64,000 nt of DNA from Escherichia coli phage AZ21: the sequence record LC788708.1; one strand, 5' to 3'. The position numbers were made by a program, and so were the translations under genes. Under the pieces are notes generated by a model that worked only from the letters and a program-made list of their open reading frames with translations, was not told the DNA's origin and made no database searches. Shown here piece after piece: positions 18,832 through 64,000 of this stretch (within the stretch, counting starts at the first letter, position 1; each line of letters starts with the position of its first letter).

Positions 18832-18860
18832 TTGCTAAACCTCTCTTTTCTTGCTATAAT
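18832..18860 (+). promoter_or_regulatory. sigma70 promoter (T5 early type)
   Basis: TTGCTA-17-TATAAT then ATAAATTGATGAGAGAGG leader. Confidence 0.65.
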
Positions 18861-18890
18861 ATGTTTATAAATTGATGAGAGAGGTTTGAA

Positions 18891-46125: not shown

Positions 46126-46156
46126 ATTTATCTCTCCATTTCTAATTTATGAATCT

Positions 46157-46185
46157 ATTATAGCAAAATAGAGGGATGAAAGCAA
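46157..46185 (-). promoter_or_regulatory. sigma70 early-type promoter for llp-like gene (minus strand)
   Basis: On minus strand TTGCTT-17-TATAAT then AGATTCATAAATT and RBS GGAGAG. Confidence 0.65.
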
Positions 46186-46210
46186 ATACATTTTTATAAT
46201 AGGAGATTAT

Positions 46211-47968: not shown

Positions 47969-47978
47969 AGGAGGATAT

Positions 47979-48461: not shown

Positions 48462-49777
48462 TGAAAGTCTCTAGAGATTATATTAACACCACAGATGTTA
48501 TTGACTTTGGTATTGACAAACGATTTTTTCGTCTGCCAGTCTCTAGCATTCTAGCTCAAGAGGGGATTACACCTAACGCCCCTCAGGTTGCAATTATTAA
48601 TGCGTTAGAAGATCCTAGACACCGTTTCGTAACTGCGTGTGTATCACGTCGTGTAGGTAAGTCATTCATCGCATATACACTTGGGTTCCTAAAACTTCTG
48701 GAACCCAATGTGAAGGTGCTGGTAGTTGCACCTAACTACTCACTGGCTAACATAGGTTGGTCACAGATTCGTGGTCTTATTAAGAAGTATGGATTACAGA
48801 CTGAACGTGAGAACGCAAAAGATAAAGAGATTGAACTAGCGAATGGTTCTCTCTTTAAGCTGGCTTCTGCGGCGCAGGCTGACTCCGCGGTTGGTCGTTC
48901 ATATGACTTCATCATTTTTGACGAAGCAGCGATTTCCGACGTTGGTGGTGCAGCTTTCGATATTCAGTTACGTCCTACTCTAGATAAGCCAAACTCTAAA
49001 GCTCTGTTTATTTCCACACCTCGTGGTGGTAACTGGTTTAAAGAGTTCTATGAGAAAGGATTTAACGAAACTCTACCTAACTGGGTATCTATTCATGGTA
49101 CATATCGTGATAACCCACGTGCTGATCTGAACGATATCGAAGAAGCGCGTCGTACTGTTAGTAAAAACTACTTCCGTCAAGAATATGAGGCTGACTTCTC
49201 TGTATTCGAAGGTCAGATCTTTGACACCTTCAATGCTATCGAACATGTTAAAGACCTCAAAGGTATGCGCCACTTCTTTAAAGATGATGAGGCTTTCGAA
49301 ACATTACTTGGTATCGACGTTGGTTATCGTGACCCTACAGCAGTTCTTACTATCAAGTATCACTATGATACTGATGTTTATTACGTACTGGAAGAATATC
49401 AGCAAGCTGAAAAGACTACAGCTCAACACGCTGCTTATATCCAACACTGCATAGATCGTTATAATGTTGATCGTATATTTGTAGACTCCGCCGCTGCTCA
49501 GTTCCGTCAGGACTTAGCATATGAACATGAAATCGCTTCTGCTCCTGCTAAGAAATCTGTCCTAGATGGTCTGGCATGCCTACAAGCACTGTTCCAGCAA
49601 GGTAAGATCATCGTAGATGCTTCATGTACCTCATTGATCCACGCCCTAGCGAACTACAGGTGGGACTTCCAGGAGGGCGAAGAGAAATTATCACGTGAAA
49701 AACCACGTCATGATGCGAACTCTCACCTTTGTGACGCACTGCGTTATGGAATTTACTCAATTTCCCGTGGGAAATAA
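48461..49777 (+). CDS. terminase large subunit
   Basis: Walker A-like VSRRVGKS, Walker B DFIIFDEAA, C-terminal nuclease-like acidic motifs (GIDVGYRDPT, FVDSAAA); 438 aa. Confidence 0.85.
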   Translation: MKVSRDYINTTDVIDFGIDKRFFRLPVSSILAQEGITPNAPQVAIINALEDPRHRFVTACVSRRVGKSFIAYTLGFLKLLEPNVKVLVVAPNYSLANIGWSQIRGLIKKYGLQTERENAKDKEIELANGSLFKLASAAQADSAVGRSYDFIIFDEAAISDVGGAAFDIQLRPTLDKPNSKALFISTPRGGNWFKEFYEKGFNETLPNWVSIHGTYRDNPRADLNDIEEARRTVSKNYFRQEYEADFSVFEGQIFDTFNAIEHVKDLKGMRHFFKDDEAFETLLGIDVGYRDPTAVLTIKYHYDTDVYYVLEEYQQAEKTTAQHAAYIQHCIDRYNVDRIFVDSAAAQFRQDLAYEHEIASAPAKKSVLDGLACLQALFQQGKIIVDASCTSLIHALANYRWDFQEGEEKLSREKPRHDANSHLCDALRYGIYSISRGK

Positions 49778-49948
49778 ATAAGTATAGGATGGGATACTAC
49801 TCAGTTGGTATCCCATTCCTGCATTTTAAAATCCCCTTTACAAATTCGACATGATTATGTATACTATATTCATTGATCGGGAGAACTTCTCCCCTAATAG
49901 AACGTAAACAAGAAAAATTAGTGCTCTATACGGAGTGTAGGAGATTCT

Positions 49949-50623
49949 ATGGGTCGACAAAAGCTAACAATAAAAGATATAAATACTAGATTAGCTGATC
50001 GTGGAATCCAAATTGTCGGTGAATATGTAAACCAACGTACAAAAACAGTATTTAAGTGCCAAAGAGCACACGTTTGGGAAGCAACGCCACATTCTATACT
50101 CCATATTAAGAGGGGTTGCCCACACTGCGCACCTAATACTATATTGCTAGATGAAGTTAATAACAGGATATCCAGTATAGGGTATACACTGTTAAATAAC
50201 TATACTAATGCAAAAACAAAACTACATCTACGCTGTAATAATGGTCATGAATGCGATATTACCTTAGATGGGTTGACGCAAGGTAGAAGATGTCCTTATT
50301 GCTCCCTTAAATGGGATAATGGTGGATTTCTCTATATCATGTCCTCTTCTAGGGGTACTAAAGTAGGTATAGGTTTATACCCCGAGAAGCGATTGAACGA
50401 GGTTAAAAGAGAGTCTGGATTTTCAGATCTATACTTATTTACCACGTATCACTTACCTGATAGAGAAACTGCTCTAGATTTAGAAAAAGAAGTCCATAGA
50501 GAATATTATAATAAAAACTGTGGGTTTTCAAAATTTACAGGAAGCACAGAATTTTTTAATGTTGCTCCAGAGGATATAGTAGTCTTTCTAAGTAACTTTG
50601 GATTGGAGGAATATGGCCACTAA
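49949..50623 (+). CDS. zinc-ribbon plus T5orf172/GIY-YIG-like domain protein
   Basis: Two CxxC pairs then GFLYIMSSSRGTKVGIGLYPEKRLNE pattern. Confidence 0.5.
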   Translation: MGRQKLTIKDINTRLADRGIQIVGEYVNQRTKTVFKCQRAHVWEATPHSILHIKRGCPHCAPNTILLDEVNNRISSIGYTLLNNYTNAKTKLHLRCNNGHECDITLDGLTQGRRCPYCSLKWDNGGFLYIMSSSRGTKVGIGLYPEKRLNEVKRESGFSDLYLFTTYHLPDRETALDLEKEVHREYYNKNCGFSKFTGSTEFFNVAPEDIVVFLSNFGLEEYGH

Positions 50624-51050
50624 TACTAAGTACAAACGTGATGCCATTTCCATAATGAGGGATGGTATAAAATCTAGGTATAGTAAGGATGGTTGCTGTG
50701 CTATATGCGGTAGTGATGAAGCCCTAGAACTTCATCACTATCATACTATATCTCAACTAATTAAAAATTTTGCTAAAGAACTCCAGCTGGATTTCACTGA
50801 TGAGAATATCGTCCTTTCAAATAGGGAAGCATTCTATAAGAAATATGAGCATGAATTAGTTAGAGACGTAGTAACATTATGCCAGCATCATCACCAATTA
50901 TTACATAAGGTTTACACAAAAGAACCTCCTTTATTTTCTGCTAATAAGCAAAAAGTGTGGGTTCAAAAGCAGAAAGACAAATTACAGAATCCTCAAGAAA
51001 AGACACAAGTCAAGACTGAAACAAAATCAGGATTCGCAAGGTTCTTATAA
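50598..51050 (+). CDS. HNH endonuclease
   Basis: CCAICGSDEALELHHYH ... CQHHHQLLH. Confidence 0.6.
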   Translation: MDWRNMATNTKYKRDAISIMRDGIKSRYSKDGCCAICGSDEALELHHYHTISQLIKNFAKELQLDFTDENIVLSNREAFYKKYEHELVRDVVTLCQHHHQLLHKVYTKEPPLFSANKQKVWVQKQKDKLQNPQEKTQVKTETKSGFARFL

Positions 51051-52267
51051 TGGGTTTTAAAAGCTGGATTACTGAAAAGCTAAATCCGGGTCAACGTATT
51101 ATAAGAGACATGGAACCAGTTAGTCATCGCACTAACCGTAAGCCTTTTACCACTGGACAAGCCTACAGTAAAATTGAGATTCTCAATAGAACTGCTAATA
51201 TGGTTATAGATAGTGCGGCGGAGTGTTCTTATACTGTCGGAGATAAATATAATATTGTCACGTATGCCAATGGCATCAAGGCAAAGACTCTAGACACTCT
51301 CTTAAATGTACGACCTAATCCATTCATGGATATAAGCACATTCCGTAGACTTGTAGTCACTGACCTACTTTTTGAAGGTTGTGCATACATCTATTGGGAT
51401 GGCACAGCACTTTACCATGTCCCTGCTGCACTAATGCAAGTAGAGGCAGATGCCAATAAGTTTATCAAAAAATTTATATTTAATAACCAGATAGACTATC
51501 GCGTAGATGAGATTATCTTTATAAAGGATAACAGTTACGTGTGTGGCACAAATTCTCAAATTTCTGGACAATCTCGTGTTGCTACTGTTATTGATTCTCT
51601 TGAGAAGCGTTCTAAGATGCTTAACTTTAAAGAGAAGTTCCTAGATAACGGAACCGTGATTGGTCTTATTCTTGAGACGGATGAAATCCTGAACAAGAAA
51701 TTGCGTGAGCGTAAACAAGAAGAATTACAACTAGATTATAATCCTAGTACTGGTCAGTCCTCTGTCCTGATTCTAGATGGTGGTATGAAAGCTAAACCGT
51801 ACTCCCAAATATCCTCTTTTAAAGATCTAGACTTTAAGGAAGACATTGAAGGATTTAATAAATCTATCTGTCTAGCCTTTGGTGTTCCGCAAGTGCTACT
51901 TGATGGTGGTAATAATGCGAACATTAGACCAAATATCGAACTGTTCTATTATATGACTATCATCCCTATGCTGAACAAGCTGACTAGTTCTCTTACTTTC
52001 TTTTTTGGTTATAAGATTACTCCTAATACTAAGGAAGTAGCTGCATTAACACCAGATAAAGAATCTGAGGCTAAACATTTAACCTCATTGGTTAATAATG
52101 GTATTATAACTGGTAATGAAGCTCGCTTAGAGCTGAACCTTGAACCTTTAGATGATGAGCAGATGAATAAGATTCGTATTCCTGCTAACGTTGCTGGTTC
52201 TGCAACAGGTGTATCCGGTCAAGAAGGTGGTAGACCTCAAGGTTCCACCGAGGGAGATAAAGAATGA
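51050..52267 (+). CDS. portal protein
   Basis: 405 aa immediately downstream of terminase region and upstream of protease and capsid; assigned by synteny and size. Confidence 0.6.
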   Translation: MGFKSWITEKLNPGQRIIRDMEPVSHRTNRKPFTTGQAYSKIEILNRTANMVIDSAAECSYTVGDKYNIVTYANGIKAKTLDTLLNVRPNPFMDISTFRRLVVTDLLFEGCAYIYWDGTALYHVPAALMQVEADANKFIKKFIFNNQIDYRVDEIIFIKDNSYVCGTNSQISGQSRVATVIDSLEKRSKMLNFKEKFLDNGTVIGLILETDEILNKKLRERKQEELQLDYNPSTGQSSVLILDGGMKAKPYSQISSFKDLDFKEDIEGFNKSICLAFGVPQVLLDGGNNANIRPNIELFYYMTIIPMLNKLTSSLTFFFGYKITPNTKEVAALTPDKESEAKHLTSLVNNGIITGNEARLELNLEPLDDEQMNKIRIPANVAGSATGVSGQEGGRPQGSTEGDKE

Positions 52268-52752
52268 TTGATTATAGTGGTCTAAAGACCATTTTTGGAG
52301 AAAAACTGCCAGAATCTCATATCTTCTTTGCTACGGTTGCTGCGCATAAATATGTTCCTAGCTATGCTTTTCTGCGTAGAGAACTAGGACTTTCATCTGC
52401 GCATACTAACCGTAAAGTATGGAAGAAATTTGTAGAGGCTTATGGTAAGGCTGGTCCAGTAGACGTTGTCCCTGGAGCCCCTACGTTGCAGGTAACTCCG
52501 GGTGAAAATTCAGTAACTTATATAATTACTGAGGGTACTAATACCGACTCACCAATCACCCAGTATAAAGTATACTATACTGATGGGGTTACTGCGAAAA
52601 CCTATAACTCTGGATCTTCTAAAACAGGTACTATTCCTACCTTAGAAGCAAAAGAGTATACTTTCCAGGCAGTAGCTGTTAATGGGGCGGGAGAATCTCC
52701 TAAGTCTACAGCAGTAAAAGCTACCCCAACTGCACCTGGTGTTGGAGGCTAA
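52264..52752 (+). CDS. putative capsid decoration protein with Ig/FN3-like domain
   Basis: Beta-rich C-terminal domain (TYNSGSSKTGTIPTLEAKEYTFQAVAVNGAGESP). Confidence 0.4.
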   Translation: MIDYSGLKTIFGEKLPESHIFFATVAAHKYVPSYAFLRRELGLSSAHTNRKVWKKFVEAYGKAGPVDVVPGAPTLQVTPGENSVTYIITEGTNTDSPITQYKVYYTDGVTAKTYNSGSSKTGTIPTLEAKEYTFQAVAVNGAGESPKSTAVKATPTAPGVGG

Positions 52753-52755
52753 TAA

Positions 52756-53388
52756 ATGACACAAGCTGCTATTGACTATAACAAGTTAAAATCAGCACCG
52801 GTTCATTTAGATGCTTATATTAAATCTATTGATAGCGAATCCAAAGAGGGTGTTGTAAAAATCCGTGGATTCGCTAATACAATTAGTAAAGATCGCGCTG
52901 GTGATGTAATTCCTGCTTCGGCATGGAAAACATCTAATGCACTTGCTAACTACATGAAAAACCCGATTATTCTTTTCGGACATGACCATCGTCGTCCAAT
53001 CGGCAAGTGTATTGATCTTAACCCTACTGAAATGGGTCTCGAAATCGAATGCGAGATCTATGAAAGTTCTGATCCGGCTATCTTTTCACTAATTAAAAAC
53101 GGTGTACTGAAAACTTTTAGTATCGGATTCCGCTGCCTAGATGCAGAGTGGGATGAAGCTACTGATATATTTATTATTAAAGATTTAGAACTATACGAAG
53201 TTTCGGTAGTTTCTGTACCTTGTAATCAGGACTCAACATTCAACCTCGCTAAGAGTATGAATGGTCATGATTATACTGAATGGCGTAAATCTTTTACTGC
53301 AATAAGTTCTAAAGCTGTCCCAGCTCAAGAACGTAATCTTTCTGAACTAGAAAAACTTGCGATAGCTTTAGGCTACGTTAAAGAATAA
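52756..53388 (+). CDS. prohead protease
   Basis: 210 aa directly upstream of major capsid gene; His/Ser-containing protease-like core. Confidence 0.55.
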   Translation: MTQAAIDYNKLKSAPVHLDAYIKSIDSESKEGVVKIRGFANTISKDRAGDVIPASAWKTSNALANYMKNPIILFGHDHRRPIGKCIDLNPTEMGLEIECEIYESSDPAIFSLIKNGVLKTFSIGFRCLDAEWDEATDIFIIKDLELYEVSVVSVPCNQDSTFNLAKSMNGHDYTEWRKSFTAISSKAVPAQERNLSELEKLAIALGYVKE

Positions 53389-53405
53389 CGGAGAATTATT
53401 TAAAA

Positions 53406-54782
53406 ATGACTATTGATATTAATAAGCTGAAAGAAGAACTTGGTCTGGGTGATCTGGCTAAATCTCTGGAAGGTCTGACCGCTGCTCAGAAAGCTGCTGA
53501 AGCTGAACGTATGCGTAAAGAGCAGGAAGAAAAAGAACTGGCTCGTATGAATGATCTGGTTTCTAAAGCAGTTGGCGAAGATCGTCAGAAGCTAGAAGAA
53601 GCTCTGGAACTGGTTAAATCCCTGGATGAAAAATCTAAGAAGAGCGCAGAACTGTTTGCACAGACTGTAGAAAAACAGCAGGAAACTATTGTTGGTCTTC
53701 AGGACGAAATCAAATCTCTGCTAGCAGCTCGTGAAGGTCGTTCCTTCGTCGGTGATAGCGTAGCTAAAGCACTGTATGGTACTCAAGAAAACTTTGAAGA
53801 CGAAGTGGAGAAACTGGTTCTTCTGTCCTACGTGATGGAAAAAGGTGTATTTGATACCGAACATGGCCAGAGACACCTGAAAGCTGTAAACCAGTCCTCT
53901 TTAGTAGAAGTTTCTAGTGAAAGCTATGAAACTATTTTCTCCCAGCGTATTATTCGTGATCTGCAGAAAGAACTGGTAGTTGGTGCACTGTTCGAAGAAT
54001 TGCCGATGTCCAGCAAATTGCTGACTATGCTGGTTGAACCAGAAGCTGGTAAAGCTACTTGGGTAGATGCTAGTGCATATGGTACTGATGCTACTACTGG
54101 TGACGAAGTTAAAGGTGCTCTGACTGAAATTCAGTTCAAAACCTATAAACTGGCTGCTAAGTCCTTCATTACTGATGAAACTGAAGAAGATGCAATCTTC
54201 TCCCTGCTACCGTTGCTGCGTAAGCGTCTGATTGAAGCACACGCTGTTTCTATCGAAGAAGCATTTATGACTGGTGACGGTACTGGTAAGCCTAAGGGTC
54301 TGCTGAAACTGGCTGAAGGCGATAAGGCTAAAGTTATTACTGAAGCTAAAGCTGATGGTTCTGTTCTGGTAACTGCTAAAACTATCTCTAAACTGCGTCG
54401 TAAACTGGGCCGTCATGGTCTGAAACTGAGCAAACTGGTACTGATCGTATCTATGGATGCTTATTACGATCTGCTGGAAGATGAAGAATGGCAGGATGTT
54501 GCCCAGGTTGGTAACGATGCTGTTAAACTGCAAGGTCAGGTTGGTCGTATTTACGGTCTGCCGGTTGTAGTTTCTGAGTTCTTCCCGGCTAAAGCTAACT
54601 CTGCAGAGTTCGCAGTTATTGTTTATAAAGATAACTTCGTAATGCCGCGTCAGCGTGCTGTTACTGTTGAACGTGAGCGCCAAGCTGGTAAACAACGTGA
54701 TGCGTACTACGTTACTCAGCGTGTTAACCTGCAACGTTACTTCGAAAACGGCGTTGTATCCGGTACTTACGCTGCATCTTAA
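53406..54782 (+). CDS. major capsid protein (with N-terminal coiled-coil delta domain)
   Basis: 458 aa; N-terminal ~150 aa coiled coil, HK97-like order protease-capsid. Confidence 0.8.
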   Translation: MTIDINKLKEELGLGDLAKSLEGLTAAQKAAEAERMRKEQEEKELARMNDLVSKAVGEDRQKLEEALELVKSLDEKSKKSAELFAQTVEKQQETIVGLQDEIKSLLAAREGRSFVGDSVAKALYGTQENFEDEVEKLVLLSYVMEKGVFDTEHGQRHLKAVNQSSLVEVSSESYETIFSQRIIRDLQKELVVGALFEELPMSSKLLTMLVEPEAGKATWVDASAYGTDATTGDEVKGALTEIQFKTYKLAAKSFITDETEEDAIFSLLPLLRKRLIEAHAVSIEEAFMTGDGTGKPKGLLKLAEGDKAKVITEAKADGSVLVTAKTISKLRRKLGRHGLKLSKLVLIVSMDAYYDLLEDEEWQDVAQVGNDAVKLQGQVGRIYGLPVVVSEFFPAKANSAEFAVIVYKDNFVMPRQRAVTVERERQAGKQRDAYYVTQRVNLQRYFENGVVSGTYAAS

Positions 54783-54802
54783 TACAGGCTTTTCAGCCGA
54801 TA

Positions 54803-54830
54803 AGGAGAGCTTCGGCTCTCCTTTTTTATT
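54803..54830 (+). terminator. rho-independent terminator after capsid gene
   Basis: GGAGAGC-TTCG-GCTCTCC then TTTTTT. Confidence 0.75.
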
Positions 54831-54841
54831 GGGAAAAATAA

Positions 54842-55354
54842 ATGCAAATCATCACAGCCGAAGATTATAGATTATATGGTGGTTTAAAACGACCTGAATT
54901 AGAATCTGGTGTAGAAATGATGATTACTGCTGCCAATGCGCTGATTACGAGCCTTCTAGGCATGGATGATGCTGATGCGGTAGACCAGTTAATCAATACA
55001 AAACCTACACGTAGGAAATATTTTCTGAGCTCACCATCTGCTACCTCCGTAACTAAAGTGACGATTAACGATAATGAGATTGACCCAGAGCAGTATAAGC
55101 TATACTCTGATGGTATTATCCTTCTCAAATTTAATCCTCCAGAAGGTTATATGGATGTAGCATATACACAAGGTGGATTCAATCCAATACCTGAAGATCT
55201 CAAACTTGCAGCATGTATGTTAGTAGATCATTGGCACAAACAAGATTACCGCCAAGCTAAAACAATTGGTGGTGAAACAGTAACCTTCAATAGCACTAAG
55301 TCTGGTATCCCAGAGCATATTCGTACTATTATTGAAGTGTATAGGAGAGTATAA
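54842..55354 (+). CDS. putative head completion/connector protein
   Basis: Position between capsid and tail genes. Confidence 0.35.
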   Translation: MQIITAEDYRLYGGLKRPELESGVEMMITAANALITSLLGMDDADAVDQLINTKPTRRKYFLSSPSATSVTKVTINDNEIDPEQYKLYSDGIILLKFNPPEGYMDVAYTQGGFNPIPEDLKLAACMLVDHWHKQDYRQAKTIGGETVTFNSTKSGIPEHIRTIIEVYRRV

Positions 55355-56121
55355 TGTCTCTTTCCGATCTAGCTAAACAAATTATTAAAGAGCAGCTAGA
55401 TACTGCAGGACGATCTGAAAATAATAAGAATACTGTTGTGTATTCTGTTGAGACAGGGTTAAAAGATCCTACCAGAGATGGTACTGTTGCTCAAGTATCT
55501 TTTAAGTTTTCAAAACCCGTATCACAAGATCTTCTTGATGTTAGAACAGCCTCTATACTAAAAGCAGTATCCTCTAGTTTAGATCTTTCGGGGGATTTAG
55601 GTGCTCTAGAGAACTTAATACAAGCAACCGCGGGTAAAAAATCCTCTGTAGGTAAAAAACGTTCTACAGGCAGAGTACAGGTAAACTTTGGGGATCCTAG
55701 AGACGTAGAGGATGGATACTCAGGTGCAATAACAGGTGCTTCCGGACGTTTTGTATCAAATAGCAATATGAAGGTTATATTAGAGATAGTTGCTAAAGAG
55801 TACTTAATAAAGGATATGAAAAAGACAGGAGCGCCATTAAAATTTAGAACTGGCAGGTTTGCAAATTCTCTGAAAATTAAGGATGTTATGCTTAGAGATG
55901 CAGAGACTAGTAAAGGTGCTCCTGAATTAAACGTGACGTATAATTATATGGTACGTCCATATTCTGTATTTAATCCAGCAGTATCTACATATCGAAGATT
56001 ATCTCTACGACCTTACCCAGGCGCTAGAAACCCCCAAAAACTTATTGGTGAGGCTATAGCAAAAGCTGCAAGAGACCTGATTCACTCTAGATATAAAATC
56101 AAGGTTAATCAAGGAACCTAA
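55354..56121 (+). CDS. putative head-tail joining protein
   Basis: Position. Confidence 0.35.
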   Translation: MSLSDLAKQIIKEQLDTAGRSENNKNTVVYSVETGLKDPTRDGTVAQVSFKFSKPVSQDLLDVRTASILKAVSSSLDLSGDLGALENLIQATAGKKSSVGKKRSTGRVQVNFGDPRDVEDGYSGAITGASGRFVSNSNMKVILEIVAKEYLIKDMKKTGAPLKFRTGRFANSLKIKDVMLRDAETSKGAPELNVTYNYMVRPYSVFNPAVSTYRRLSLRPYPGARNPQKLIGEAIAKAARDLIHSRYKIKVNQGT

Positions 56122-56124
56122 TAA

Positions 56125-56610
56125 ATGGATTATAGAACAAGTATTGCACAAGCTCTGGTTGACCGTATATCTAAACAGTTGGATGGTTCTCAACCTGACG
56201 AATATTTTAATAACCTATATGGAAACGTTTCTCGTCAAACTTATAAATTTGAGGAAATACGAGAGTTTCCTTATGTGGCAGTTCATATCGGAACTGAAAC
56301 TGGGCAGTATCTTCCTTCGGGCCAACAGTGGATGTTTTTAGAACTTCCAATCCTGGTGTACGATAAAGAGAAAACAGACATTCAAGAGCAACTTGAAAAA
56401 CTCGTAGCGGATATAAAAACCGTTATTGACACAGGTGGAAATTTAGAATATACTGTTAGTAAACCTAATGGATCGACCTTCCCATGTGAGGCAACTGATA
56501 TGATCATTACATCAGTTAATACAGATGAGGGTCTACTGGCCCCATATGGTTTAGCAGAAATAAATGTAACAGTGAGGTATCAGCCTCCACGTAGGTCACT
56601 TCGCAGATAA
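56125..56610 (+). CDS. putative tail terminator/completion protein
   Basis: 161 aa immediately upstream of tail tube gene. Confidence 0.4.
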   Translation: MDYRTSIAQALVDRISKQLDGSQPDEYFNNLYGNVSRQTYKFEEIREFPYVAVHIGTETGQYLPSGQQWMFLELPILVYDKEKTDIQEQLEKLVADIKTVIDTGGNLEYTVSKPNGSTFPCEATDMIITSVNTDEGLLAPYGLAEINVTVRYQPPRRSLRR

Positions 56611-56636
56611 GTTACAGATTAGGAGAAAATAATTAA

Positions 56637-58031
56637 ATGTCTTTACAACTATTACGTAATACTCGAATCTTCGTGTCTACGGTTAAGACTGGTCATAATA
56701 AGACCAACACGCAAGAGATTCTAGTTCAGGATGATATTTCTTGGGGTCAGGACAGTAACTCAACAGATATTACTGTTAATGAAGCTGGTCCGCGTCCAAC
56801 TCGTGGTTCTAAACGTTTTAACGACTCTTTAAACGCGGCTGAGTGGAGTTTCTCTACTTACATCCTGCCCTATATCAATAAAGATGATCAGAAGCAAATC
56901 GTTCCTGACTATATGTTATGGCATGCACTTTCTAGTGGTAAAGCTATTAACTTAGAAGGTAATACAGGGGCACACAATAACGAGGCTAACTTCATGGTTA
57001 ACTTCAAAGATAACTCCTATCATGAGTTAGCAATGTTACATATTTATATTCTGACTGATAAAGCATGGAGTTATATCGATTCCTGTCAGATTAATCAGGC
57101 AGAAGTTAACGTTGATATCGAAGATATTGGCCGTGTAACTTGGTCCGGTAATGGTAATCAGCTTATTCCTCTGGATGAGCAACCATTTGACCCAGATGAG
57201 TTAGGTATTGATGATGAAACTTATATGACTATCCAGGGTTCTTATATTAAGAACAAACTAACGATCTTGAAGATCAAGGATATGGATACCAATAAGTCTT
57301 ATGACATACCTATTACTGGTGGTACTTTCACCATTAATAATAACATCACGTATCTAACCCCGAATATTATGTCCCGTGTAAATATTCCGATCGGTTCATT
57401 TACTGGCGCATTTGAACTAACTGGTTCATTAACTGCTTATCTGAATGATAAATCTCTTGGTTCTATGGAGCTGTATAAAGATCTTATCAAAACTCTGAAG
57501 GTAGTTAACCGCTTCGAAATTGCTCTAGTACTTGGTGGTGAATACGATGAAGAACGTCCTGCGGCTATTTTGGTAGCTAAACAAGCACACGTTAATATTC
57601 CTACTATTGAAACTGATGATGTACTTGGTACTTCAGTAGAGTTTAAAGCTATTCCATCTGATCTGGATGCTGGTGATGAAGGTTACTTAGGCTTCTCTAG
57701 TAAATATACCAAAACAACTATTAATAACTTGATTGTTAATGGTGATGGTGCTACTAATGCTGTAACCGCAATTACTGTTAAATCTGCTGGTGATGTTACT
57801 ACAGTAAATAACTCGGCTACTCTTCAAATGAGTGTTGAAATTACTCCTTCTTCCGCAAAGAATAAAGAAGTTACTTGGGCTATCACTGCTGGTGATGCAG
57901 CTACTATCAATGCAGCAGGACTATTAACAGCCCATGCTAGTAAAACAGGTGCGGTAACTGTTGAAGCTACAGCTAAGGATGGTTCTGGAGTTAAAGGTAC
58001 TAAACAGATTACTGTAACAGCAGGTGGTTAA
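56637..58031 (+). CDS. tail tube protein with C-terminal Ig-like (BIG2-type) domain
   Basis: 464 aa; C-terminal Ig-like domain; upstream of chaperone and tape-measure genes. Confidence 0.75.
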   Translation: MSLQLLRNTRIFVSTVKTGHNKTNTQEILVQDDISWGQDSNSTDITVNEAGPRPTRGSKRFNDSLNAAEWSFSTYILPYINKDDQKQIVPDYMLWHALSSGKAINLEGNTGAHNNEANFMVNFKDNSYHELAMLHIYILTDKAWSYIDSCQINQAEVNVDIEDIGRVTWSGNGNQLIPLDEQPFDPDELGIDDETYMTIQGSYIKNKLTILKIKDMDTNKSYDIPITGGTFTINNNITYLTPNIMSRVNIPIGSFTGAFELTGSLTAYLNDKSLGSMELYKDLIKTLKVVNRFEIALVLGGEYDEERPAAILVAKQAHVNIPTIETDDVLGTSVEFKAIPSDLDAGDEGYLGFSSKYTKTTINNLIVNGDGATNAVTAITVKSAGDVTTVNNSATLQMSVEITPSSAKNKEVTWAITAGDAATINAAGLLTAHASKTGAVTVEATAKDGSGVKGTKQITVTAGG

Positions 58032-58035
58032 TTAA

Positions 58036-58935
58036 ATGTACTACTCTCTAATGAGAGAGTCAAAAGTTATAGTTGAGTATGATGGTAGGGCATTTCATTT
58101 TGATGCCCTATCAAACTATGATATACAGACTTCCTACGAGGAATTCAAGACTCTTCGTAGGACTGTTCATCGTAGAACTAACTATGCAGACTCTATTATA
58201 AATGCTCAAACTCCCTCTTCTATCTCTCTAGCCGTAAATTTCAGTAATACTCTTACGGAGGCTAACTTCTTTGAATGGTTAGGTTTTGATAGAAAAGGTA
58301 ATACTTTCTTACTCCCACTATATAGTAGTAATATTGAACCTATTATGTTCAATATCTATATAGTAAACAAAGATAGTAACTGTGTATATTTTGAAAACTG
58401 TTATGTATCTACGGTAGATTTTTCTTTAGATAAGAACATACCAATTCTTAATGTTGGTATTGAGTCTGGGAAATTCTCAGAAGTATCTACCTATAGAGAA
58501 GCAGCTTCTATTATACAGGGTGAAGTAATGTCTTACAGCCCAGTAATAGCTTCTACTAATGGCAGCATCTTACCAGGTCTTATTTCTGCCTCTTTATCTT
58601 TCCAACAGCAGTGTTCCTGGAGAGAGGATAAGAGTGTTTTTGATATAAATAAAATTTATAATAATAAAAGAGCCTATGTAACTGAAATGAATGCTTCGGC
58701 AACCATTTCTCTATACTACTTAAAACGTTTTGCAGGAGATATGGTTTATAATATAGAACCGGAGATAGATATACCTTTAACAATAAGAAATAATAATATT
58801 TCTATAGATTTTCCTTCAGCACGTATTACAAAACGCCTAGATTTCTCAGATGTGTATAGAGTTGAGTGGGATATTATACCTACTGCTTCTTCAGACCCAG
58901 TGAGAATAGATTTCTTTGGAGAAATTAAAAAATGA
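58036..58935 (+). CDS. hypothetical tail-associated protein
   Basis: 299 aa between tail tube and chaperone genes. Confidence 0.4.
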   Translation: MYYSLMRESKVIVEYDGRAFHFDALSNYDIQTSYEEFKTLRRTVHRRTNYADSIINAQTPSSISLAVNFSNTLTEANFFEWLGFDRKGNTFLLPLYSSNIEPIMFNIYIVNKDSNCVYFENCYVSTVDFSLDKNIPILNVGIESGKFSEVSTYREAASIIQGEVMSYSPVIASTNGSILPGLISASLSFQQQCSWREDKSVFDINKIYNNKRAYVTEMNASATISLYYLKRFAGDMVYNIEPEIDIPLTIRNNNISIDFPSARITKRLDFSDVYRVEWDIIPTASSDPVRIDFFGEIKK

Positions 58936-59336
58936 TTAATTTAAAAGATATTACTCTTGATACTCGTACTATTACTCTTTCCTACCCAGGTATGCCGAAC
59001 TTTAAACTAGAACTTAACTATATGTCTCGTGCTACCTCTAAACGTGTTATTTCTTCTGCTAAACGCGATGAATGGGTTAACGGTACTTTGGTTCAGGTAC
59101 AGGATGATGATAAGTTCATTGAAGCCTTTGTTGACGCAGCTATTAAAGGTTGGACTGGTTTGACTGTAGGTGACGTTGAAAAACTAATGCTGATTGAAAC
59201 AGATGCTGATCCTGCTACTGAAGTTCCTTTTAGCCGCGATAATGCTGTAATGCTTATGCAGAACTCTGCTGCGTTTGATTCTTGGATCAACCAGACAGTG
59301 TTCCACTTAGACACTTTTCGTAGCCCAAAAGCGTAA
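58932..59336 (+). CDS. tail assembly chaperone (short form)
   Basis: 134 aa acidic protein immediately upstream of tape measure gene. Confidence 0.45.
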   Translation: MINLKDITLDTRTITLSYPGMPNFKLELNYMSRATSKRVISSAKRDEWVNGTLVQVQDDDKFIEAFVDAAIKGWTGLTVGDVEKLMLIETDADPATEVPFSRDNAVMLMQNSAAFDSWINQTVFHLDTFRSPKA

Positions 59337-59766
59337 AGAACTTCTGGATGCTGTTGCTGATTTTGCAGATAAATGTATTAAGAGCTCAGCATCTAAAATG
59401 ACCAAACAACAATATTTAATACTTTGCGAGTCAATGGGTATAGAGCCTGATCCTAAGGCTATGCCCGTTGAACTTGAGGATTTTCCACCTATTGTATCTA
59501 TTAGTATGAATATTTATAACAGTCTGATTGACTGTTTCATACCGGGTGACTTTCCTATTTTTATAGGTAAGGATAAAGCTGCATTAGGTGTTTTATTTGA
59601 TATTTATGGGATTACTGATCCTATAGAAAAAGAATTTGTTCTACACATTATCAATATATTTGATGCTAAAGCTGTAGACGCTGCACGTAAACATGCTGAG
59701 AAGCATAAACCGCAAAACGGGAGGATCCCTAACGTTAAGCCACATGCTAGATCTCGTGCACGGTAA
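59311..59766 (+). CDS. tail assembly chaperone extension (probably expressed by +1 frameshift from 58932-59336)
   Basis: Frame open from 59311, overlapping the upstream ORF end; no convincing RBS before the first ATG at 59398. Confidence 0.35.
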   Translation, partial: TLFVAQKRKELLDAVADFADKCIKSSASKMTKQQYLILCESMGIEPDPKAMPVELEDFPPIVSISMNIYNSLIDCFIPGDFPIFIGKDKAALGVLFDIYGITDPIEKEFVLHIINIFDAKAVDAARKHAEKHKPQNGRIPNVKPHARSRAR

Positions 59767-59801
59767 AAGTTTCCTCCAATGGGCGTTCCACGATGAGGCT
59801 T

Positions 59802-59833
59802 GGCTCTGGGTGATTTGCCCAGAGCCTTTTTTA
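59802..59833 (+). terminator. rho-independent terminator
   Basis: GGCTCTGGG-TGATTTG-CCCAGAGCC then TTTTTT. Confidence 0.75.
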
Positions 59834-59849
59834 TTGGGAAAAATAAAAC

Positions 59850-62800
59850 ATGACTGATAAGCTAATACGAGAATTACTAATAGACGTTAAACAGAAGGGG
59901 GCAACTCGTACTGCAAAGTCTATTGAAAACGTATCTGATGCGTTGGAAAATGCTGCTGCTGCTTCCGAACTGACAAATGAGCAGTTAGGTAAAATGCCCA
60001 GAACTCTTTATTCCATTGAGAGGGCAGCAGACAGAGCAGCGAAAAGTCTTACTAAAATGCAAGCTAGTAGGGGTATGGCTGGTATCACTAAATCCATTGA
60101 TGGTATTGGTGATAAGCTAGATTACCTGGCTATCCAACTTATTGAAGTAACAGATAAACTAGAAATTGGATTTGATGGAGTTTCTAGATCTGTTAAAACA
60201 ATGGGTAATGATGTTGCAGCTGCAACAGAAAAAGTCCAGGATAGATTATATGATACTAATAGAGCATTAGGTGGTACAGCTAGAGGTTTTAACGACACTG
60301 CTGGTGCCGCTGGTAGAGCTTCTAGAGCTATTGGTAATACTTCTGGTTCAGCACGTGGTGCAACTCGTGATTTTGCGGCAATGGCTAAGATCGGTGGTAG
60401 TCTACCTATTATGTACGCAGCTCTTGCTTCCAACATCTTCGTTTTGCAATCAGCATTTGAACAACTTAAACTAGGTGATCAGCTAAATCGTCTAGAAAAA
60501 TTTGGTGTTATAGTAGGTACTCAGACAGGTACTCCTGTTCAGACCCTTGCTAGATCACTACAAGAAGCTGCTGGATATGCTATTTCTTTTGAGGAAGCAA
60601 TGAGACAGGCATCTTCAGCATCTGCTTATGGATTTGATGCTGAACAGCTTAATAAATTTGGTTTAGTAGCTCGTCGTGCGGCTGCTGTTCTTGGCGTTGA
60701 TATGACTGATGCACTTAACCGTGTAATTAAGGGCGTATCTAAACAAGAAATCGAACTTCTGGATGAACTTGGTGTCACCATCCGTCTTAATGACGCATAC
60801 GCTGATTATGTTAAACAGTTAAATGCTGCAAACACAGGTATAACATATAATGTTAATAGTCTTACCACTTTCCAGAAGCAACAAGCATACGCTAATGCGG
60901 TAATTGCTGAATCTACTAAGCGTTTCGGCTACCTAGATGAAGTACTACGTGCAACTCCATGGGAGCAGTTTGCTGCTAATGCAGATGCTGCACTAAGAAA
61001 AATACAACAAGCTGCTGCTAAGTATTTAGGGCCAGTAATTGATGCTATCAACACAGTATTTTATACGTCTCAGGCTTCTATATCTGCTGAGGCAGCTAGG
61101 GCTCAAGAAAAAACTAATAGACAGATAGACCCTACCAACGTTGGTGCTGTTGCTTTAAGTTTAGCTGCTTCTGAAGAAGGCTATAATAAAGCTCTAGATA
61201 TGTATAAGGAATCTCTTGATAAGCGTAATAAGCTAAAATCTGAGTTTGATAAACGAATGGAACAAGCAGATTTCTATACAAAATTAGCTATACGTCAAGT
61301 TGGTGAAGGTATTCCTATTGGTATTGCAGCAGCAGGTGCTTCGGAGGCCAATAAGCAATTTGTAGCAGAAACTGCAGCTATGGGTCTACAAGTAACTAGA
61401 CTTGGTAAGGAAGTAGAGGATTCTACAGAGAATCTCAATGCTTGGAAATCAGCGTATCAAGCTGCTGGGGCTGCTGCTGCAAATGCTAGTCCAGAGTTTC
61501 AGAAGCAAATTAATCTCCAGAGAGATACTACTGATCCTGATGCTGTATACGATTTTAACTCTACTGTATTAAAAGGACTAACTGAGCAGCAGAAAGCGTA
61601 CAATCAGACTAAGAAAACTGCTAGTGACTTAGCTAATGACTTTCAAAATATAGCTAGTAGCACAGATACTGCTGCTAAAACCAGTGCAACTTTTGAAGAG
61701 GTAATTAAAAACATATCGTCTCTATCCGCAGGAACTGGTAAGAGTGCTGATGATTATGTTAAAAGCCTCAACTTAGGGTTTAACACTCTGTCTGAAATGA
61801 AAACTGCGTCTCAGGCCTTATCTGAGTACGTTAAACTAACGGGTAATGAGACTAAGAACCAGTTAGCAGTTCAACAGAAGATAGCGGATGTATATAACCA
61901 AACTAAGGATAAAGAAAAAGCACAGGAAGCTGGTAGACGTTTAGAGTTGCAACAGTTAGAAGAGCAAGAAACTGCTTTACACCGTGTTCTTCAAACAAAC
62001 CAGGGAAATAAAGCTGTTGAAAAAGAAATTGAAAAAATTCAGCTGGAGAAACTTAAACTTACTAATCAGGGTATGGAGGCTCAGAAGAAGGTTAAGGATT
62101 ACACAGATAAAATTCTGGGTGTAGATCGTGAGATAGCCCTCTTAAATAACCGTACTATGACAGATACTCAGTATCGTCTAGCACAGTTAAATCTTGAATT
62201 GACCGTTGAAAAAGAGAAGTACGAATGGTACACAAAACAAGCTGATAAACAGAAAGAGGCAGAACAGTCTAGACGTGCTCAAGCTCAAATTGAACGTGAA
62301 ATCTGGAAATTCCGCCAAGATCAGATTGCTTCAATGGCTGCTGGTAGAGAGGAAGAACAGCAAAGACAATTTACTGCTAAACCATTAATGGGAAATGCGG
62401 AGCGCCTACAGGAACAGCTAAAATTATATGAAGACTTAAAGCAGAAAACATTAGGTAATGCTGCGGCACAAGCGGAATATAATAAAAAGATAGCTGAAAC
62501 TAGGGCACAACTAGCAGGTTTAAGGGCACAGAGAAATGCGGAGATGCAAGCTTCTGTTGGATCTTCTTTAGGTGCTGTGTACACCCCTACAACTGGACTA
62601 TCTGGAGAAGATAAAGATTTTGCTGATATGGGAAATAGGATGGCTTCTTATGACCAGGCAATATCTAAACTATCCGAGCTAAACTCTGAAGCAACCGCTG
62701 TAGCTCAAAGCATGGGTAACCTAACCAATGCTATGATTCAGTTCTCTATGGGGTCTTTAGACACGACTTCCACGATCGCAGTAGGTATGCAAGCTGTATC

Positions 62801-63530
62801 CTCTATGATTCAATATAGTACTAGTCAACAGGTTAGTGCAATTGATCAGGCTATCGCAGCAGAGCAGAAACGTGATGGTAAATCAGAAGCATCTAAAGCT
62901 AAGTTGAAGAAGTTGGAAGCTGAAAAGCTGAAGATTCAACAAGACGCAGCTAAGAAGCAGATTATCATCCAAACTGCGGTAGCAGTAATGCAAGCGGCAA
63001 CAGCTGTACCGTACCCGTTCTCTATTCCTTTGATGGTGGCGGCAGGTTTGGCAGGTGCCTTAGCTCTTGCTCAAGCATCTTCTGCATCTGGCATGTCTTC
63101 TATTGCAGATTCTGGGGCGGATACAACTAGTTATTTAACCTTAGGAGAACGTCAGAAGAATATAGATGTGTCCATGTCTGCTAATGCTGGTGAATTATCT
63201 TATATTCGTGGCGATAAAGGCATAGGTGGTGCTAACTCTTTCGTTCCCCGTGCTGAGGGTGGTAATATGTACCCTGGGGTTAGCTATCAAATGGGTGAGC
63301 ATGGTACAGAAGTAGTTACCCCTATGGTTCCTATGAAAGCTACACCTAATGATGAGCTAAAAATCTCATCTAACTCAACTTCAGGAAGACCTATCATCTT
63401 GAATATTAGTGCTATGGATGCTGCAAGTTTTAGAGAGTTTGCTTCTAGTAATAGTAGTGCTCTAAGAGACGCAGTAGAATTAGCTCTGAATGAGAACGGT
63501 GCTAGTCTGAAAACATTAGGAAATTCTTAA
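59850..63530 (+). CDS. tail tape measure protein (pb2-like)
   Basis: 1226 aa, Ala/Gln-rich coiled-coil central region, TM-like segment near C-terminus. Confidence 0.85.
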   Translation: MTDKLIRELLIDVKQKGATRTAKSIENVSDALENAAAASELTNEQLGKMPRTLYSIERAADRAAKSLTKMQASRGMAGITKSIDGIGDKLDYLAIQLIEVTDKLEIGFDGVSRSVKTMGNDVAAATEKVQDRLYDTNRALGGTARGFNDTAGAAGRASRAIGNTSGSARGATRDFAAMAKIGGSLPIMYAALASNIFVLQSAFEQLKLGDQLNRLEKFGVIVGTQTGTPVQTLARSLQEAAGYAISFEEAMRQASSASAYGFDAEQLNKFGLVARRAAAVLGVDMTDALNRVIKGVSKQEIELLDELGVTIRLNDAYADYVKQLNAANTGITYNVNSLTTFQKQQAYANAVIAESTKRFGYLDEVLRATPWEQFAANADAALRKIQQAAAKYLGPVIDAINTVFYTSQASISAEAARAQEKTNRQIDPTNVGAVALSLAASEEGYNKALDMYKESLDKRNKLKSEFDKRMEQADFYTKLAIRQVGEGIPIGIAAAGASEANKQFVAETAAMGLQVTRLGKEVEDSTENLNAWKSAYQAAGAAAANASPEFQKQINLQRDTTDPDAVYDFNSTVLKGLTEQQKAYNQTKKTASDLANDFQNIASSTDTAAKTSATFEEVIKNISSLSAGTGKSADDYVKSLNLGFNTLSEMKTASQALSEYVKLTGNETKNQLAVQQKIADVYNQTKDKEKAQEAGRRLELQQLEEQETALHRVLQTNQGNKAVEKEIEKIQLEKLKLTNQGMEAQKKVKDYTDKILGVDREIALLNNRTMTDTQYRLAQLNLELTVEKEKYEWYTKQADKQKEAEQSRRAQAQIEREIWKFRQDQIASMAAGREEEQQRQFTAKPLMGNAERLQEQLKLYEDLKQKTLGNAAAQAEYNKKIAETRAQLAGLRAQRNAEMQASVGSSLGAVYTPTTGLSGEDKDFADMGNRMASYDQAISKLSELNSEATAVAQSMGNLTNAMIQFSMGSLDTTSTIAVGMQAVSSMIQYSTSQQVSAIDQAIAAEQKRDGKSEASKAKLKKLEAEKLKIQQDAAKKQIIIQTAVAVMQAATAVPYPFSIPLMVAAGLAGALALAQASSASGMSSIADSGADTTSYLTLGERQKNIDVSMSANAGELSYIRGDKGIGGANSFVPRAEGGNMYPGVSYQMGEHGTEVVTPMVPMKATPNDELKISSNSTSGRPIILNISAMDAASFREFASSNSSALRDAVELALNENGASLKTLGNS

Positions 63531-63537
63531 AACTGGA

Positions 63538-63562
63538 GGAGGACTTTGAGTCCTCCTTTTCT
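63538..63562 (+). terminator. rho-independent terminator
   Basis: GGAGGACT-TTG-AGTCCTCC then TTTT. Confidence 0.75.
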
Positions 63563-63583
63563 TTATGGAAAAATAAAAATTTC

Positions 63584-63612
63584 TTGATAAAATTTTCTAA
63601 TACTATTATAAT
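63584..63612 (+). promoter_or_regulatory. sigma70-like promoter in late region
   Basis: TTGATA-17-TATAAT upstream of RBS AGAGGAG. Confidence 0.5.
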
Positions 63613-63639
63613 ATTGTTATTAAAGAGGAGAAATTAACT

Positions 63640-64000
63640 ATGAGATTACCAGACCCATACACGAATCCAGAACTTTCAGGCTTAGGATTCGAAAGTGTTA
63701 ACCTGATTGATAATGACCCAGTAATTCGTGATGAGTTACCAAATGGTAAAGTTAACGAAGTTAAGGTATCTGCTCAATACTGGGGTATAAATATTTCTTA
63801 TCCAGAATTATTTCCAGATGAATATAGTGTTCTAGATGCTTTTATTCTAGAATACAAAAGGACTGGTGGTTATATAGATGTTATATTACCCCAATACGAA
63901 GCTTTCAGAGTTAGAGGTAATACTAGTCTAGTAAATATACCTGCTGGACAGAAGGGTTCTAATATAACTATGGATACAAAAGGACTTCTTACAGGTACTC
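63640..64000 (+). CDS. distal tail protein (Dit-like), N-terminal part; 3' end outside window
   Basis: First gene after tape measure; ORF runs to window end. Confidence 0.45.
   Translation, partial: MRLPDPYTNPELSGLGFESVNLIDNDPVIRDELPNGKVNEVKVSAQYWGINISYPELFPDEYSVLDAFILEYKRTGGYIDVILPQYEAFRVRGNTSLVNIPAGQKGSNITMDTKGLLTGT

Follow-up and report, generated by a model that had tools for sequence, protein, structure and literature searches.

The late region of the window, by which we mean the whole 64-kb stretch of DNA analysed here, is 100% identical to that of Escherichia coli phage AZ23 (Tequintavirus), and the window comes from a T5-like phage. Three strong hairpins, each with a T-rich tail next to it, lie in this region: S1 follows the major capsid gene, S2 the tail chaperone genes and S3 the tape measure gene (Table 1). 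Their counterparts in phage T5 (record AY543070) are the rho-independent terminators annotated after pb8, after T5.142 and after pb2; in the same record 'promoter P-G 25' begins at the end of the third terminator and 'P-J 5' lies within T5.146. The S1 hairpin starts 19 nt past the capsid stop at 54782 (9 pairs, dG -13.6 kcal/mol), S2 35 nt past the chaperone stop at 59766 (11 pairs, dG -19.1 kcal/mol) and S3 4 nt past the tape measure stop at 63530 (11 pairs, dG -14.8 kcal/mol). S1 reads AAGGAGAGC-TTCG-GCTCTCCTT and is followed by TTTTATTGGGAAAAATAA and the ATG of the head-completion gene at 54842, while S2 reads GGCTCTGGG-TGATTTG-CCCAGAGCC and is followed by TTTTTTATTGGGAAAAATAAAAC and the ATG of the tape measure gene at 59850. 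The S3 hairpin leads into TCTTTATGGAAAAATAAAAATTTC and then into the hexamers of the late promoter PG25, the next ATG being that of the distal tail protein gene. All three sites fell within the top four of a terminator scan of positions 46000-64000.

Table 1. Features of the late region discussed in the text (positions in the window).
Feature	Position	Strand	Remarks
Major capsid gene	53406-54782		
Small hairpin GGCTTTTCAGCC	54787..54798	+	Capsid gene 3'UTR, upstream of the S1 terminator; read from sequence
S1 terminator hairpin	54802..54823	+	UUCG loop; orthologous to the T5 (AY543070) terminator after pb8
S1 tail, TTTTTTATT + GGG + AAAAATAA	54822..54841	+	U-tract, putative weak Shine-Dalgarno, A-rich spacer
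Late promoter PJ5, TTGACA-17-TATACT	56426..56454	+	Inside tail terminator protein gene; matches T5.146 'promoter P-J 5'
3'UTR element TTTCCTCCAATGGGCGTTCCACGATGAGGCTT/UUUCCUCCAAUGGGCGUUCCACGAUGAGGCUU	59770..59801	+	32 nt; between chaperone stop (59766) and S2 terminator
S2 terminator hairpin	59802..59826	+	After tail assembly chaperone genes; annotated in T5 and Sugarland
S2 tail, TTTTTTATT + GGG + AAAAATAAAAC	59827..59849	+	U-tract, putative weak Shine-Dalgarno, spacer
S3 terminator hairpin	63535..63559	+	After tape measure gene (stop 63528-63530); annotated in T5
A/T tract ATGGAAAAATAAAAATTTC	63565..63583	+	About -37 to -55, upstream of the PG25 -35; in the 75-nt T5 'promoter P-G 25' feature
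Late sigma-70 promoter PG25	63584..63612	+	-35 TTGATA, 17-bp spacer, -10 TATAAT; annotated in T5
Strong Shine-Dalgarno GAGGAG + ATG (63640)	63625..63642	+	Distal tail protein gene; duplex -9.1 kcal/mol

The earlier note had reported a strong hairpin with a T-run followed by a shared motif at three late sites, writing the motif as (A/T)TTATGG(G)AAAAATAAA; other forms of it are TTATTGGGAAAAATAA and the 21-mer TTTTTTATTGGGAAAAATAAA. A renewed reading of the sequence and shuffled controls both agree with this, and the site coordinates it gave are accurate. The 11-mer GGAAAAATAAA has three exact copies on the + strand of the 64-kb window and none on the - strand, each copy lying 5-8 nt 3' of a strong hairpin with a T-run (3/3), against 0.20 copies expected by chance and with none of 100 shuffles reaching three. 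S1 and S2 have 23 identical bases in common (CCTTTTTTATTGGGAAAAATAAA), and in a repeat search of the window the three terminator tails cluster as one family, D2. Among the 49 candidates for a hairpin with a T-run in the whole AZ23 genome, the motif follows no candidate other than these three.

The hairpins are real and conserved intrinsic terminators, as had been supposed: they are G+C-rich, stand just past a stop codon, have a T-run within 0-2 nt on the coding strand and keep a stem in relatives. At the S1 position a hairpin with a T-run is present in all lineages down to ~45% capsid identity, with differing stems, and the same holds after the tape measure stop in all lineages examined, the stems differing between clades. 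In 16 sequences representing different lineages, nearly every pair of the S2 stem shows compensatory GC/CG/UA/AU exchanges, and at 7 of the 9 pairs at least 15 of the 16 sequences are canonical. This support for the S2 stem comes from covariance model R1 and its alignment; RNAalifold on a MAFFT alignment of the S2 regions returned no structure, the stems being misaligned. The earlier note had also named poor conservation of the motif in relatives as an argument against its proposal, and here the S1 61-mer proves widely kept: 340 of 564 phage records carry it with at least 99% identity, and in genera with capsid genes of ~70% DNA identity it matches at 90-98%.

At S1 and S2 the motif reads most simply as the T-rich tail of the terminator, a weak Shine-Dalgarno sequence (GGG/GGGA) and an A-rich spacer before the ATG, and the claim that in two cases it supplies the RBS and start context of the next gene is true of these two sites. 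Each has the usual marks of a Shine-Dalgarno sequence (a purine-rich stretch able to pair with the 16S rRNA 3' end, 5-10 nt before a start codon), with a weak duplex; the gap from the last G of GGG(A) to the ATG is 8 nt at S1 and 11 nt at S2. The anti-Shine-Dalgarno duplex comes to -4.2 kcal/mol at both sites. Just two starts among 18 late genes are weaker, most late genes falling between -6.4 and -13.4 kcal/mol. Comparison of 29 unique S1 and 28 unique S2 sequences, drawn from 88 loci, shows that in more distant clades the place of GGG(A) is taken by GGAG, GGAGG, AGGAG, AGGAGG or GAGG, always 5-10 nt before the ATG, and a recognisable Shine-Dalgarno sequence stands at the homologous position in Vibrio and metagenomic relatives. 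In the Sugarland record, the S1 and S2 homologues consist of a terminator followed directly by an annotated RBS (GGGT and GGA). T5 lacks the motif/RBS part GGGAAAAATAAA at S2 because an inserted ORF, T5.141, displaced it. A mini-hairpin between the U-tract and the A-tract (UUUUUUAUU-GGG-AAAAAUAAA) was also considered and rejected, its fold of just -1.5 to -2.3 kcal/mol being no better than that of shuffles. The U-rich and A-rich flanks of these sites could raise translation despite the weak Shine-Dalgarno, and for this reason it is not certain that the two RBSs are weak.

At S3 the motif corresponds by its position to the A/T tract at about -37 to -51 of PG25, and the tract ATGGAAAAATAAAAATTTC resembles a proximal UP-element subsite. 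PG25 matches the consensus at 11 of 12 positions (9-12 of 12 in relatives), and the order terminator, A/T tract, -35 and -10 is kept in 27 of 27 unique lineages examined. All genera carry an A/T-rich, ATAAAA(A)TT-type tract at the S3 place; the exact 11-mer is confined there to close T5 relatives, and the motif is replaced by other A/T-rich sequence in relatives from Serratia, Proteus, Providencia, Pectobacterium and Vibrio. Late activity in vivo has been shown for both PG25 and PJ5 (Klimuk et al. 2020, PMC7472727), and PG25 transcripts have been seen by primer extension 30 min after T5 infection (PMC7472727). PG25 is a strong restart promoter after the S3 terminator, with the A-rich part of the motif as its upstream A/T tract, and PJ5, between S1 and S2, restarts transcription for the tail tube gene.

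The spacers that carry these signals vary little. In 26-27 close relatives, nucleotide diversity is 0.017 in the S1 spacer vs 0.126 and 0.275 at the third codon positions of the flanking genes, and 0.023 in the S2 spacer vs 0.175 and 0.199. Taken together, the three spacers have diversities of 0.017, 0.023 and 0.044 vs 0.126-0.299 at correctly phased flanking third positions (those downstream of S3 being left out), a difference that shows strong purifying selection on all three. The S1 and S2 spacers, with positions 54783-54801 and 59770-59801 upstream of the hairpins included, show more conservation than a plain terminator with an RBS would need, which tells against the reading given below. 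The first of these two stretches includes the small hairpin of the capsid 3'UTR, which is kept with other sequence in relatives (GGCAATATGCC in Providencia, GGCTTAACGCC in Pectobacterium).

We consider it likely that the three sites are intrinsic terminators dividing the late morphogenesis operon, each with the next expression signal packed against its U-tract. In the first two cases the tail UUUUUUAUU would pass into the weak Shine-Dalgarno, an A-rich spacer of 7-10 nt and the AUG of the head-completion or tape measure gene. No promoter was found between the S1 or S2 terminator and its downstream essential gene; the head-completion and tape measure genes would therefore be expressed via read-through transcripts only. 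Partial termination together with the weak Shine-Dalgarno could then produce a step-down in expression, with the capsid and tail-tube proteins abundant and the connector and tape measure proteins at low copy number. Such a role in stoichiometry is reasonable given where the terminators stand: a drop in expression is to be expected past the capsid gene and ahead of the tape measure gene. Partial read-through, the step-down in protein dosage and a UP-element-like action of the A-tract are what we infer from this layout, and a dedicated regulator is not needed to account for the motif.

The further proposal of the earlier note, a single regulatory module used repeatedly downstream of the terminators, is not supported, since S1 and S2 resolve into U-tract, Shine-Dalgarno and spacer and S3 into a promoter upstream region. 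A single cis-regulatory site reused after three late terminators, to which some factor of the phage or the host would bind and so adjust read-through or late expression, seems to us very unlikely. The three exact GGAAAAATAAA copies do stand exclusively after terminators, the motif spacers have very low diversity among close relatives, and how T5 switches from early to late expression has yet to be explained (PMC7472727). Yet a motif read by a dedicated trans-factor would be expected to be the same at all sites in relatives and independent of its neighbours, which is not what the relatives show: beyond Tequintavirus, Epseptimavirus and (partly) Sugarlandvirus the S3 motif disappears and the terminator-promoter pair remains, and the variable positions at S1 and S2 track Shine-Dalgarno variants rather than a fixed site. 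Moreover, T5 itself lacks the motif at S2, where the ORF is inserted, the late promoter PJ5 and the remaining terminators carry no copy, and a conventional explanation is available for every base of the motif. A restart promoter behind each terminator, with the motif acting as a promoter element at S1 and S2 as it would at S3, is hardly credible. TTGGGA resembles a -35 hexamer (4/6) and terminator-promoter pairs are common in the AZ23 genome, but no usable -10 follows it at 16-18 bp (TAAGCT at S2 comes closest, and S1 has no candidate); furthermore, the start codons lie 8-11 nt past the GGG, and a transcript from such a promoter would therefore lack the RBS and the start codon. The shared tail could also be a mere relic, of no selective value, left when terminator tails of the T5 lineage were duplicated or underwent gene conversion. 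The 23-nt identity of S1 and S2 and their 11-mer identity with S3 are indeed lineage-specific, and the S2 covariance model weakly matches S1 sites (E ~0.02) and S3 sites (E ~0.35). However, diversity in the spacers is 5- to 15-fold below that at adjacent third codon positions, and the T6-ATT-GG junction is retained at S1 and S2 in clades with 45-60% capsid identity. Selection is therefore favoured and a pure relic appears quite unlikely, common origin and selection being compatible. A further point against the reading favoured here is that, in the T5 lineage, S3 has an exact 11-mer in common with S1 and S2, a closer likeness than a pair of distinct functions would call for; the terminator tails may share an ancestor or be held by some additional constraint.

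The 32-nt element between the chaperone stop and the S2 hairpin is kept from Escherichia to Vibrio T5-like phages. A coding role was rejected: 1-nt indels separate close relatives (AATGGGCG vs AATGGGGCG, CACGATGAGG vs CACGTGAGG), and the element therefore has no conserved reading frame. An Rfam scan of positions 53000-64000 gave three chance-level snoRNA matches alone (E of at least 1), and none for this element. We entertain, with considerable doubt, the idea that it is a functional RNA element acting with the terminator and the abutting RBS. It could be an anti-Shine-Dalgarno switch that keeps tape measure translation from read-through RNA low or couples it to chaperone translation; alternatively, it could be the body of a 3'UTR-derived small RNA ending at the S2 terminator. 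A related proposal is that in read-through RNA pyrimidine-rich upstream segments (UUUCCUCC and UUCCACGA at S2, CCGAUA at S1) pair across the hairpin with the Shine-Dalgarno region AUUGGGAAA, repressing or coupling translation of the next gene. When the S1 and S2 read-through RNAs are folded, these upstream segments pair with the RBS in the MFE or centroid structure, a similar clamp appears in the MFE folds of distant S2 homologues (L044, L052, L009, L065 and L039), and the CCUCC-containing element is kept down to ~45% capsid identity. In some lineages (the T5 group, L044 and L052) the S2 upstream duplex also beats 300 shuffles (p ~0.03-0.05), whereas the S1 duplex energy shows no enrichment over 300 shuffles. 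Across 17 lineages, cognate pairs of 5' element and RBS at S2 average -5.62 kcal/mol vs -6.07 kcal/mol for non-cognate pairs (permutation p = 0.86), and the complementarity is therefore generic, pyrimidine vs purine. The CCUC:GAGG pairs never vary and are therefore uninformative on the upstream helix either way. In addition, ATTGG at S1 persists in clades without the upstream CCGA, and T5-group sequences are predicted to form a local hairpin that would compete. On balance such a clamp is improbable, and we retain the reading of terminators with closely packed expression signals.

In T5-like phages, then, the late operon is split by three deeply conserved terminators, two fused to the next RBS and one to a restart promoter. 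This compact layout plausibly sets stoichiometry, with many capsid and tail-tube copies and few connector and tape measure copies. The three terminators and their adjoining signals are an already known, ordinary and well-conserved design, and little is offered beyond annotation other than defined sites for T5-like phage engineering or for measuring read-through. A literature search for Term-seq, RNA-seq or transcript ends of T5-like late transcription found none. The closest comparison is phage T5 itself, whose late terminators and PG25/PJ5 promoters occupy the same positions and in which S1, the S2 hairpin, S3 and PG25 have nearly the same sequence; it differs in the extra ORF T5.141 between the S2 terminator and pb2, and its records pass over the shared tail without comment.

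Terminators of this kind have a familiar counterpart in phage T7, where T-phi, after major capsid gene 10, is a leaky terminator and the downstream structural genes are expressed by read-through. Like T-phi, S1 is a strong hairpin terminator directly after the capsid gene, and promoterless essential structural genes would depend on read-through. T7 transcribes with a polymerase of its own and relies on a class I T7 terminator, whereas the arrangement here involves the host sigma-70 polymerase, canonical intrinsic terminators and an RBS abutting the U-tract. The UP element, or '-43 A block', marks strong sigma-70 promoters such as rrnB P1 and phage T5 promoters. A similar A/T-rich sequence, ATAAAAATT, occupies about -38 to -46 of PG25, ahead of its near-consensus -35, and is conserved in kind in all relatives. 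A full UP element lies at -38 to -59 and stimulates transcription through the alpha subunit C-terminal domain; in the candidate tract here just the proximal subsite resembles the consensus, and the tract overlaps the preceding terminator tail. S3 also resembles the early terminator-promoter pairs of the same phage, in which a hairpin, T-run, A/T tract and -35 fall within ~25 nt (for example after nrdA at window position 3171, and at AZ23 positions 32791, 38235, 57690 and 60697). These early pairs differ in having a TTGCT-type -35, and none carries GGAAAAATAAA; in its overall arrangement of terminator and promoter, S3 is the same as many early T5 junctions.

Direct reading of the sequence bore out three sites in the late region of phage AZ21 where the earlier note had placed a terminator and motif as one reused module: after the major capsid gene (S1), after the tail chaperone genes (S2) and after the tape measure gene (S3). 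At each, a hairpin and T-run are shortly followed by the A-rich 11-mer GGAAAAATAAA. All three fall within the top four of a terminator scan of positions 46000-64000, and the 11-mer has exactly three copies in the window, at these sites only (0.20 expected from shuffles, none of 100 of which gave as many as three). A repeat search grouped the three tails as a single three-copy family, and a hairpin plus T-run scan of the whole genome of AZ23, the reference phage (49 candidates), found the motif after no other candidate. The three-site observation is beyond chance.

Late-region features (window positions; inserted ORFs in the loci of T5-like relatives)
Feature	Position	Strand	Description
Major capsid protein pb8	53406-54782		
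Small hairpin	54787-54798	+	GGCTTTTCAGCC; between capsid stop and terminator S1
S1 hairpin	54802-54823	+	AAGGAGAGC-TTCG-GCTCTCCTT, then TTTTATTGGGAAAAATAA, then ATG 54842; 19 nt past stop of 458-aa ORF
Head completion, tail completion, tail terminator proteins			late-gene ORFs after pb8
PJ5 counterpart	56426-56454	+	TTGACA-17-TATACT
Tail tube protein pb6			late-gene ORF
Two tail chaperone ORFs			late genes before tape measure gene
Non-coding element	59770-59801	+	TTTCCTCCAATGGGCGTTCCACGATGAGGCTT; 32 nt, between chaperone stop and terminator S2
S2 hairpin	59802-59826	+	GGCTCTGGG-TGATTTG-CCCAGAGCC, then TTTTTTATTGGGAAAAATAAAAC, then ATG 59850 (start of 1226-aa ORF)
Tape measure protein pb2	59850-63530		
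S3 hairpin	63535-63559	+	directly 3′ of 1226-aa ORF stop; then TCTTTATGGAAAAATAAAAATTTC
Promoter after S3	63584-63612	+	TTGATA-17-TATAAT, then strong Shine-Dalgarno, ATG 63640
Distal tail protein			late-gene ORF, after pb2
Inserted ORF, L004 (T5)	18456-19208		
Inserted ORF, L017	11465-12034		
Inserted ORFs, L029 and L059			between capsid and head-completion genes

Over the 10.6 kb around the sites, the sequence matches E. coli phage AZ23 (LC788707, Tequintavirus) at 100% identity and hundreds of T5-like phages at 83-94%, and its ORFs are the T5 late genes. In the T5 record (AY543070), pb8, T5.142 and pb2 are each followed by a 'putative rho-independent transcription terminator'; 'promoter P-G 25' begins at the end of the third, and 'promoter P-J 5' lies inside T5.146. 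Primer extension in infected cells identified PG25 and PJ5 as late promoters (PMC7472727). All three hairpins and the promoter at S3 are thus known features already. The window and the AZ23 record are not colinear (window 1 maps to AZ23 32073, window 53400 to 87312); therefore, the window is without the ~1840 bp that hold nadR and pnuC in AZ23 (window about 13824-14036 versus AZ23 46158-47892). Three records labelled Corynebacterium or Listeria phage (PQ773600.1, OR848485.1, MZ079855.1) contain a T5-like late region at 96-100% identity, and in some T5-like records the gene for head completion bears the label 'RecT family recombinase' or 'anaerobic NTP reductase small subunit'; such labels likely stem from public entries that are contaminated or misannotated.

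The S1 and S2 spacers were compared in nine annotated relatives and 79 IMG/VR loci found via capsid-protein alignment (98% down to 34% capsid identity). The layout of stop codon, hairpin, T5-7, usually ATT, a G-rich block, 5-10 nt and ATG is kept to about 45% capsid identity. Where the T5 group has GGG(A), other relatives have a canonical Shine-Dalgarno (TTTTTTATTGGAGGTAATAAAATG; TTTTTATTGGAGGTAGCCAATG; TTTATGGAGAACAAGATG; TTTTAGGAGGTAAGAAATG), and in the Sugarland record precisely these G's are marked as RBS, immediately 3′ of terminator features. The anti-SD duplex in the window is -4.2 kcal/mol at both sites, with just two weaker-scoring starts among 18 late genes. These equivalents and energies make the S1/S2 motif a distal U-tract, a weak Shine-Dalgarno and an A-rich spacer; the earlier claim that it supplies the next gene's RBS and start context at two sites is correct. 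Neither sequence reading nor a promoter scan found a usable -10 element at S1 or S2. In T5 an inserted ORF (T5.141, after the S2 terminator) pushes away the RBS part of S2, and in three IMG/VR relatives a similar ORF precedes an intact S1 terminator-RBS unit; these placements fit a unit made of a terminator and the next gene's RBS. Such ORFs, which adjoin terminators in some relatives (189-250 aa, CxxC pairs, common C-terminal LPDGY(S/T)ETC motif), look like putative mobile endonuclease-type genes.

At S3, the tape measure stop is followed in every lineage compared by a hairpin and T-run, an A/T-rich 15-20 nt and a near-consensus sigma-70 promoter (9-12 of 12). In the window AAAAATAAAAATTTC spans about -37 to -51 of this promoter, and ATAAAAATT (about -38 to -46) is similar in sequence to a proximal UP-element subsite and to the A block known to precede T5 promoters. 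The S3 11-mer is confined to Tequintavirus, Epseptimavirus and, partly, Sugarlandvirus; the Serratia, Proteus, Providencia, Pectobacterium and Vibrio relatives carry a different A/T-rich stretch in its place. The early region of this genome is also rich in terminator-promoter pairs of this kind. The promoter context, the 11-mer distribution and the early pairs therefore set the S3 junction apart in kind from S1/S2, and the 11-mer common to all three in the T5 lineage may reflect a common origin of the tails. An A/T tract plus a TTGCT/TTGAC -35 hexamer lie within about 20 nt downstream of the early terminators at window 719, 3171 and 6163 and at AZ23 57690 and 60697, which makes such pairing a general design in this genome. 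After nrdA, the hairpin (AAGGAGATCTTCGGGTCTCCTT) is very similar to that of S1. The S3 motif also contains a three-codon mini-ORF (ATG GAA AAA TAA, window 63565-63576) without its own Shine-Dalgarno, probably a coincidence, and the PG25 leader ATTAAAGAGGAGAAATTAACTATGAGA (window 63620-63642) appears to match the 'RBSII' ribosome-binding site of pDS/pQE expression vectors. After the large terminase gene, a hairpin with a 13-bp stem and no proper T-run (window 49787-49818) precedes a promoter-like TTTACA-17-TATACT (49837-49865), in a 172-nt gap not present there in T5.

Predicted folds of read-through RNAs, which join segments upstream of each terminator to the RBS, suggested that these segments could act as an anti-Shine-Dalgarno clamp. 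Compared with shuffles, the pairing was no stronger at S1 and only marginally stronger at S2, and cognate pairs were not better than non-cognate ones across 17 lineages (p = 0.86), which indicates no co-evolution. A mini-hairpin of U-tract and A-tract was rejected, being no more stable than shuffles, and Rfam gave no match. Of the proposed reused module, the real, conserved hairpins and the RBS context at S1/S2 stand; S3 is a different junction, and the features at all three sites are already annotated and explained by conventional signals.

Across 26-27 distinct close relatives, the three spacers show nucleotide diversities of 0.017, 0.023 and 0.044, versus 0.126-0.299 at correctly phased flanking third codon positions. 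For the S1 61-mer, 340 of 564 records show at least 99% identity, and identity stays at 90-98% in phages of Klebsiella, Proteus, Serratia and Providencia with capsid genes that share about 70-73% DNA identity or have no detectable similarity; the S1 spacer is conserved even in parts without an assigned role. Relatives also have a hairpin where the small one lies before S1, built from altered stem bases (GGCAATATGCC, GGCTTAACGCC, GGCTATACTGCC), and GCCGA 3′ of it is conserved in the enterobacterial genera. In a covariance-model alignment of S2 homologues, nearly every one of the nine stem pairs undergoes GC/CG/UA/AU exchanges, and pairing is almost complete; by this comparative evidence the hairpins are real RNA structures under selection. 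The 32-nt element before S2, conserved across T5-like phages from those of Escherichia to those of Vibrio, contains an anti-SD-like CCUCC block and a nearly invariant core, UUCCACGAG; it matches no Rfam family, and is not coding because 1-nt indels separate close relatives. Upstream (window 59308-59340), the first chaperone ORF stops at 59336, and its end is overlapped in the +1 frame, around CCCAAAAGCG, by the second, which is open from 59311; this could be a G/GT-type programmed frameshift, though not of the usual -1 kind.

The stretch from S1 to the head-completion, tail-completion and tail-terminator genes contains no promoter, nor does that from S2 to the tape measure gene; promoters next occur at PJ5, inside the tail-terminator gene (third after S1), and at PG25, after S3. 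The essential genes behind S1 and S2 must therefore be expressed via terminator read-through. We infer that partial termination and a weak Shine-Dalgarno would yield less of these products than of the capsid and tail-tube proteins, which are required in far higher copy number, and that transcription of the tube and baseplate genes then begins afresh at PJ5 and PG25. In phage T7 a terminator sits after gene 10, an arrangement analogous to the read-through proposed here for S1 and S2.
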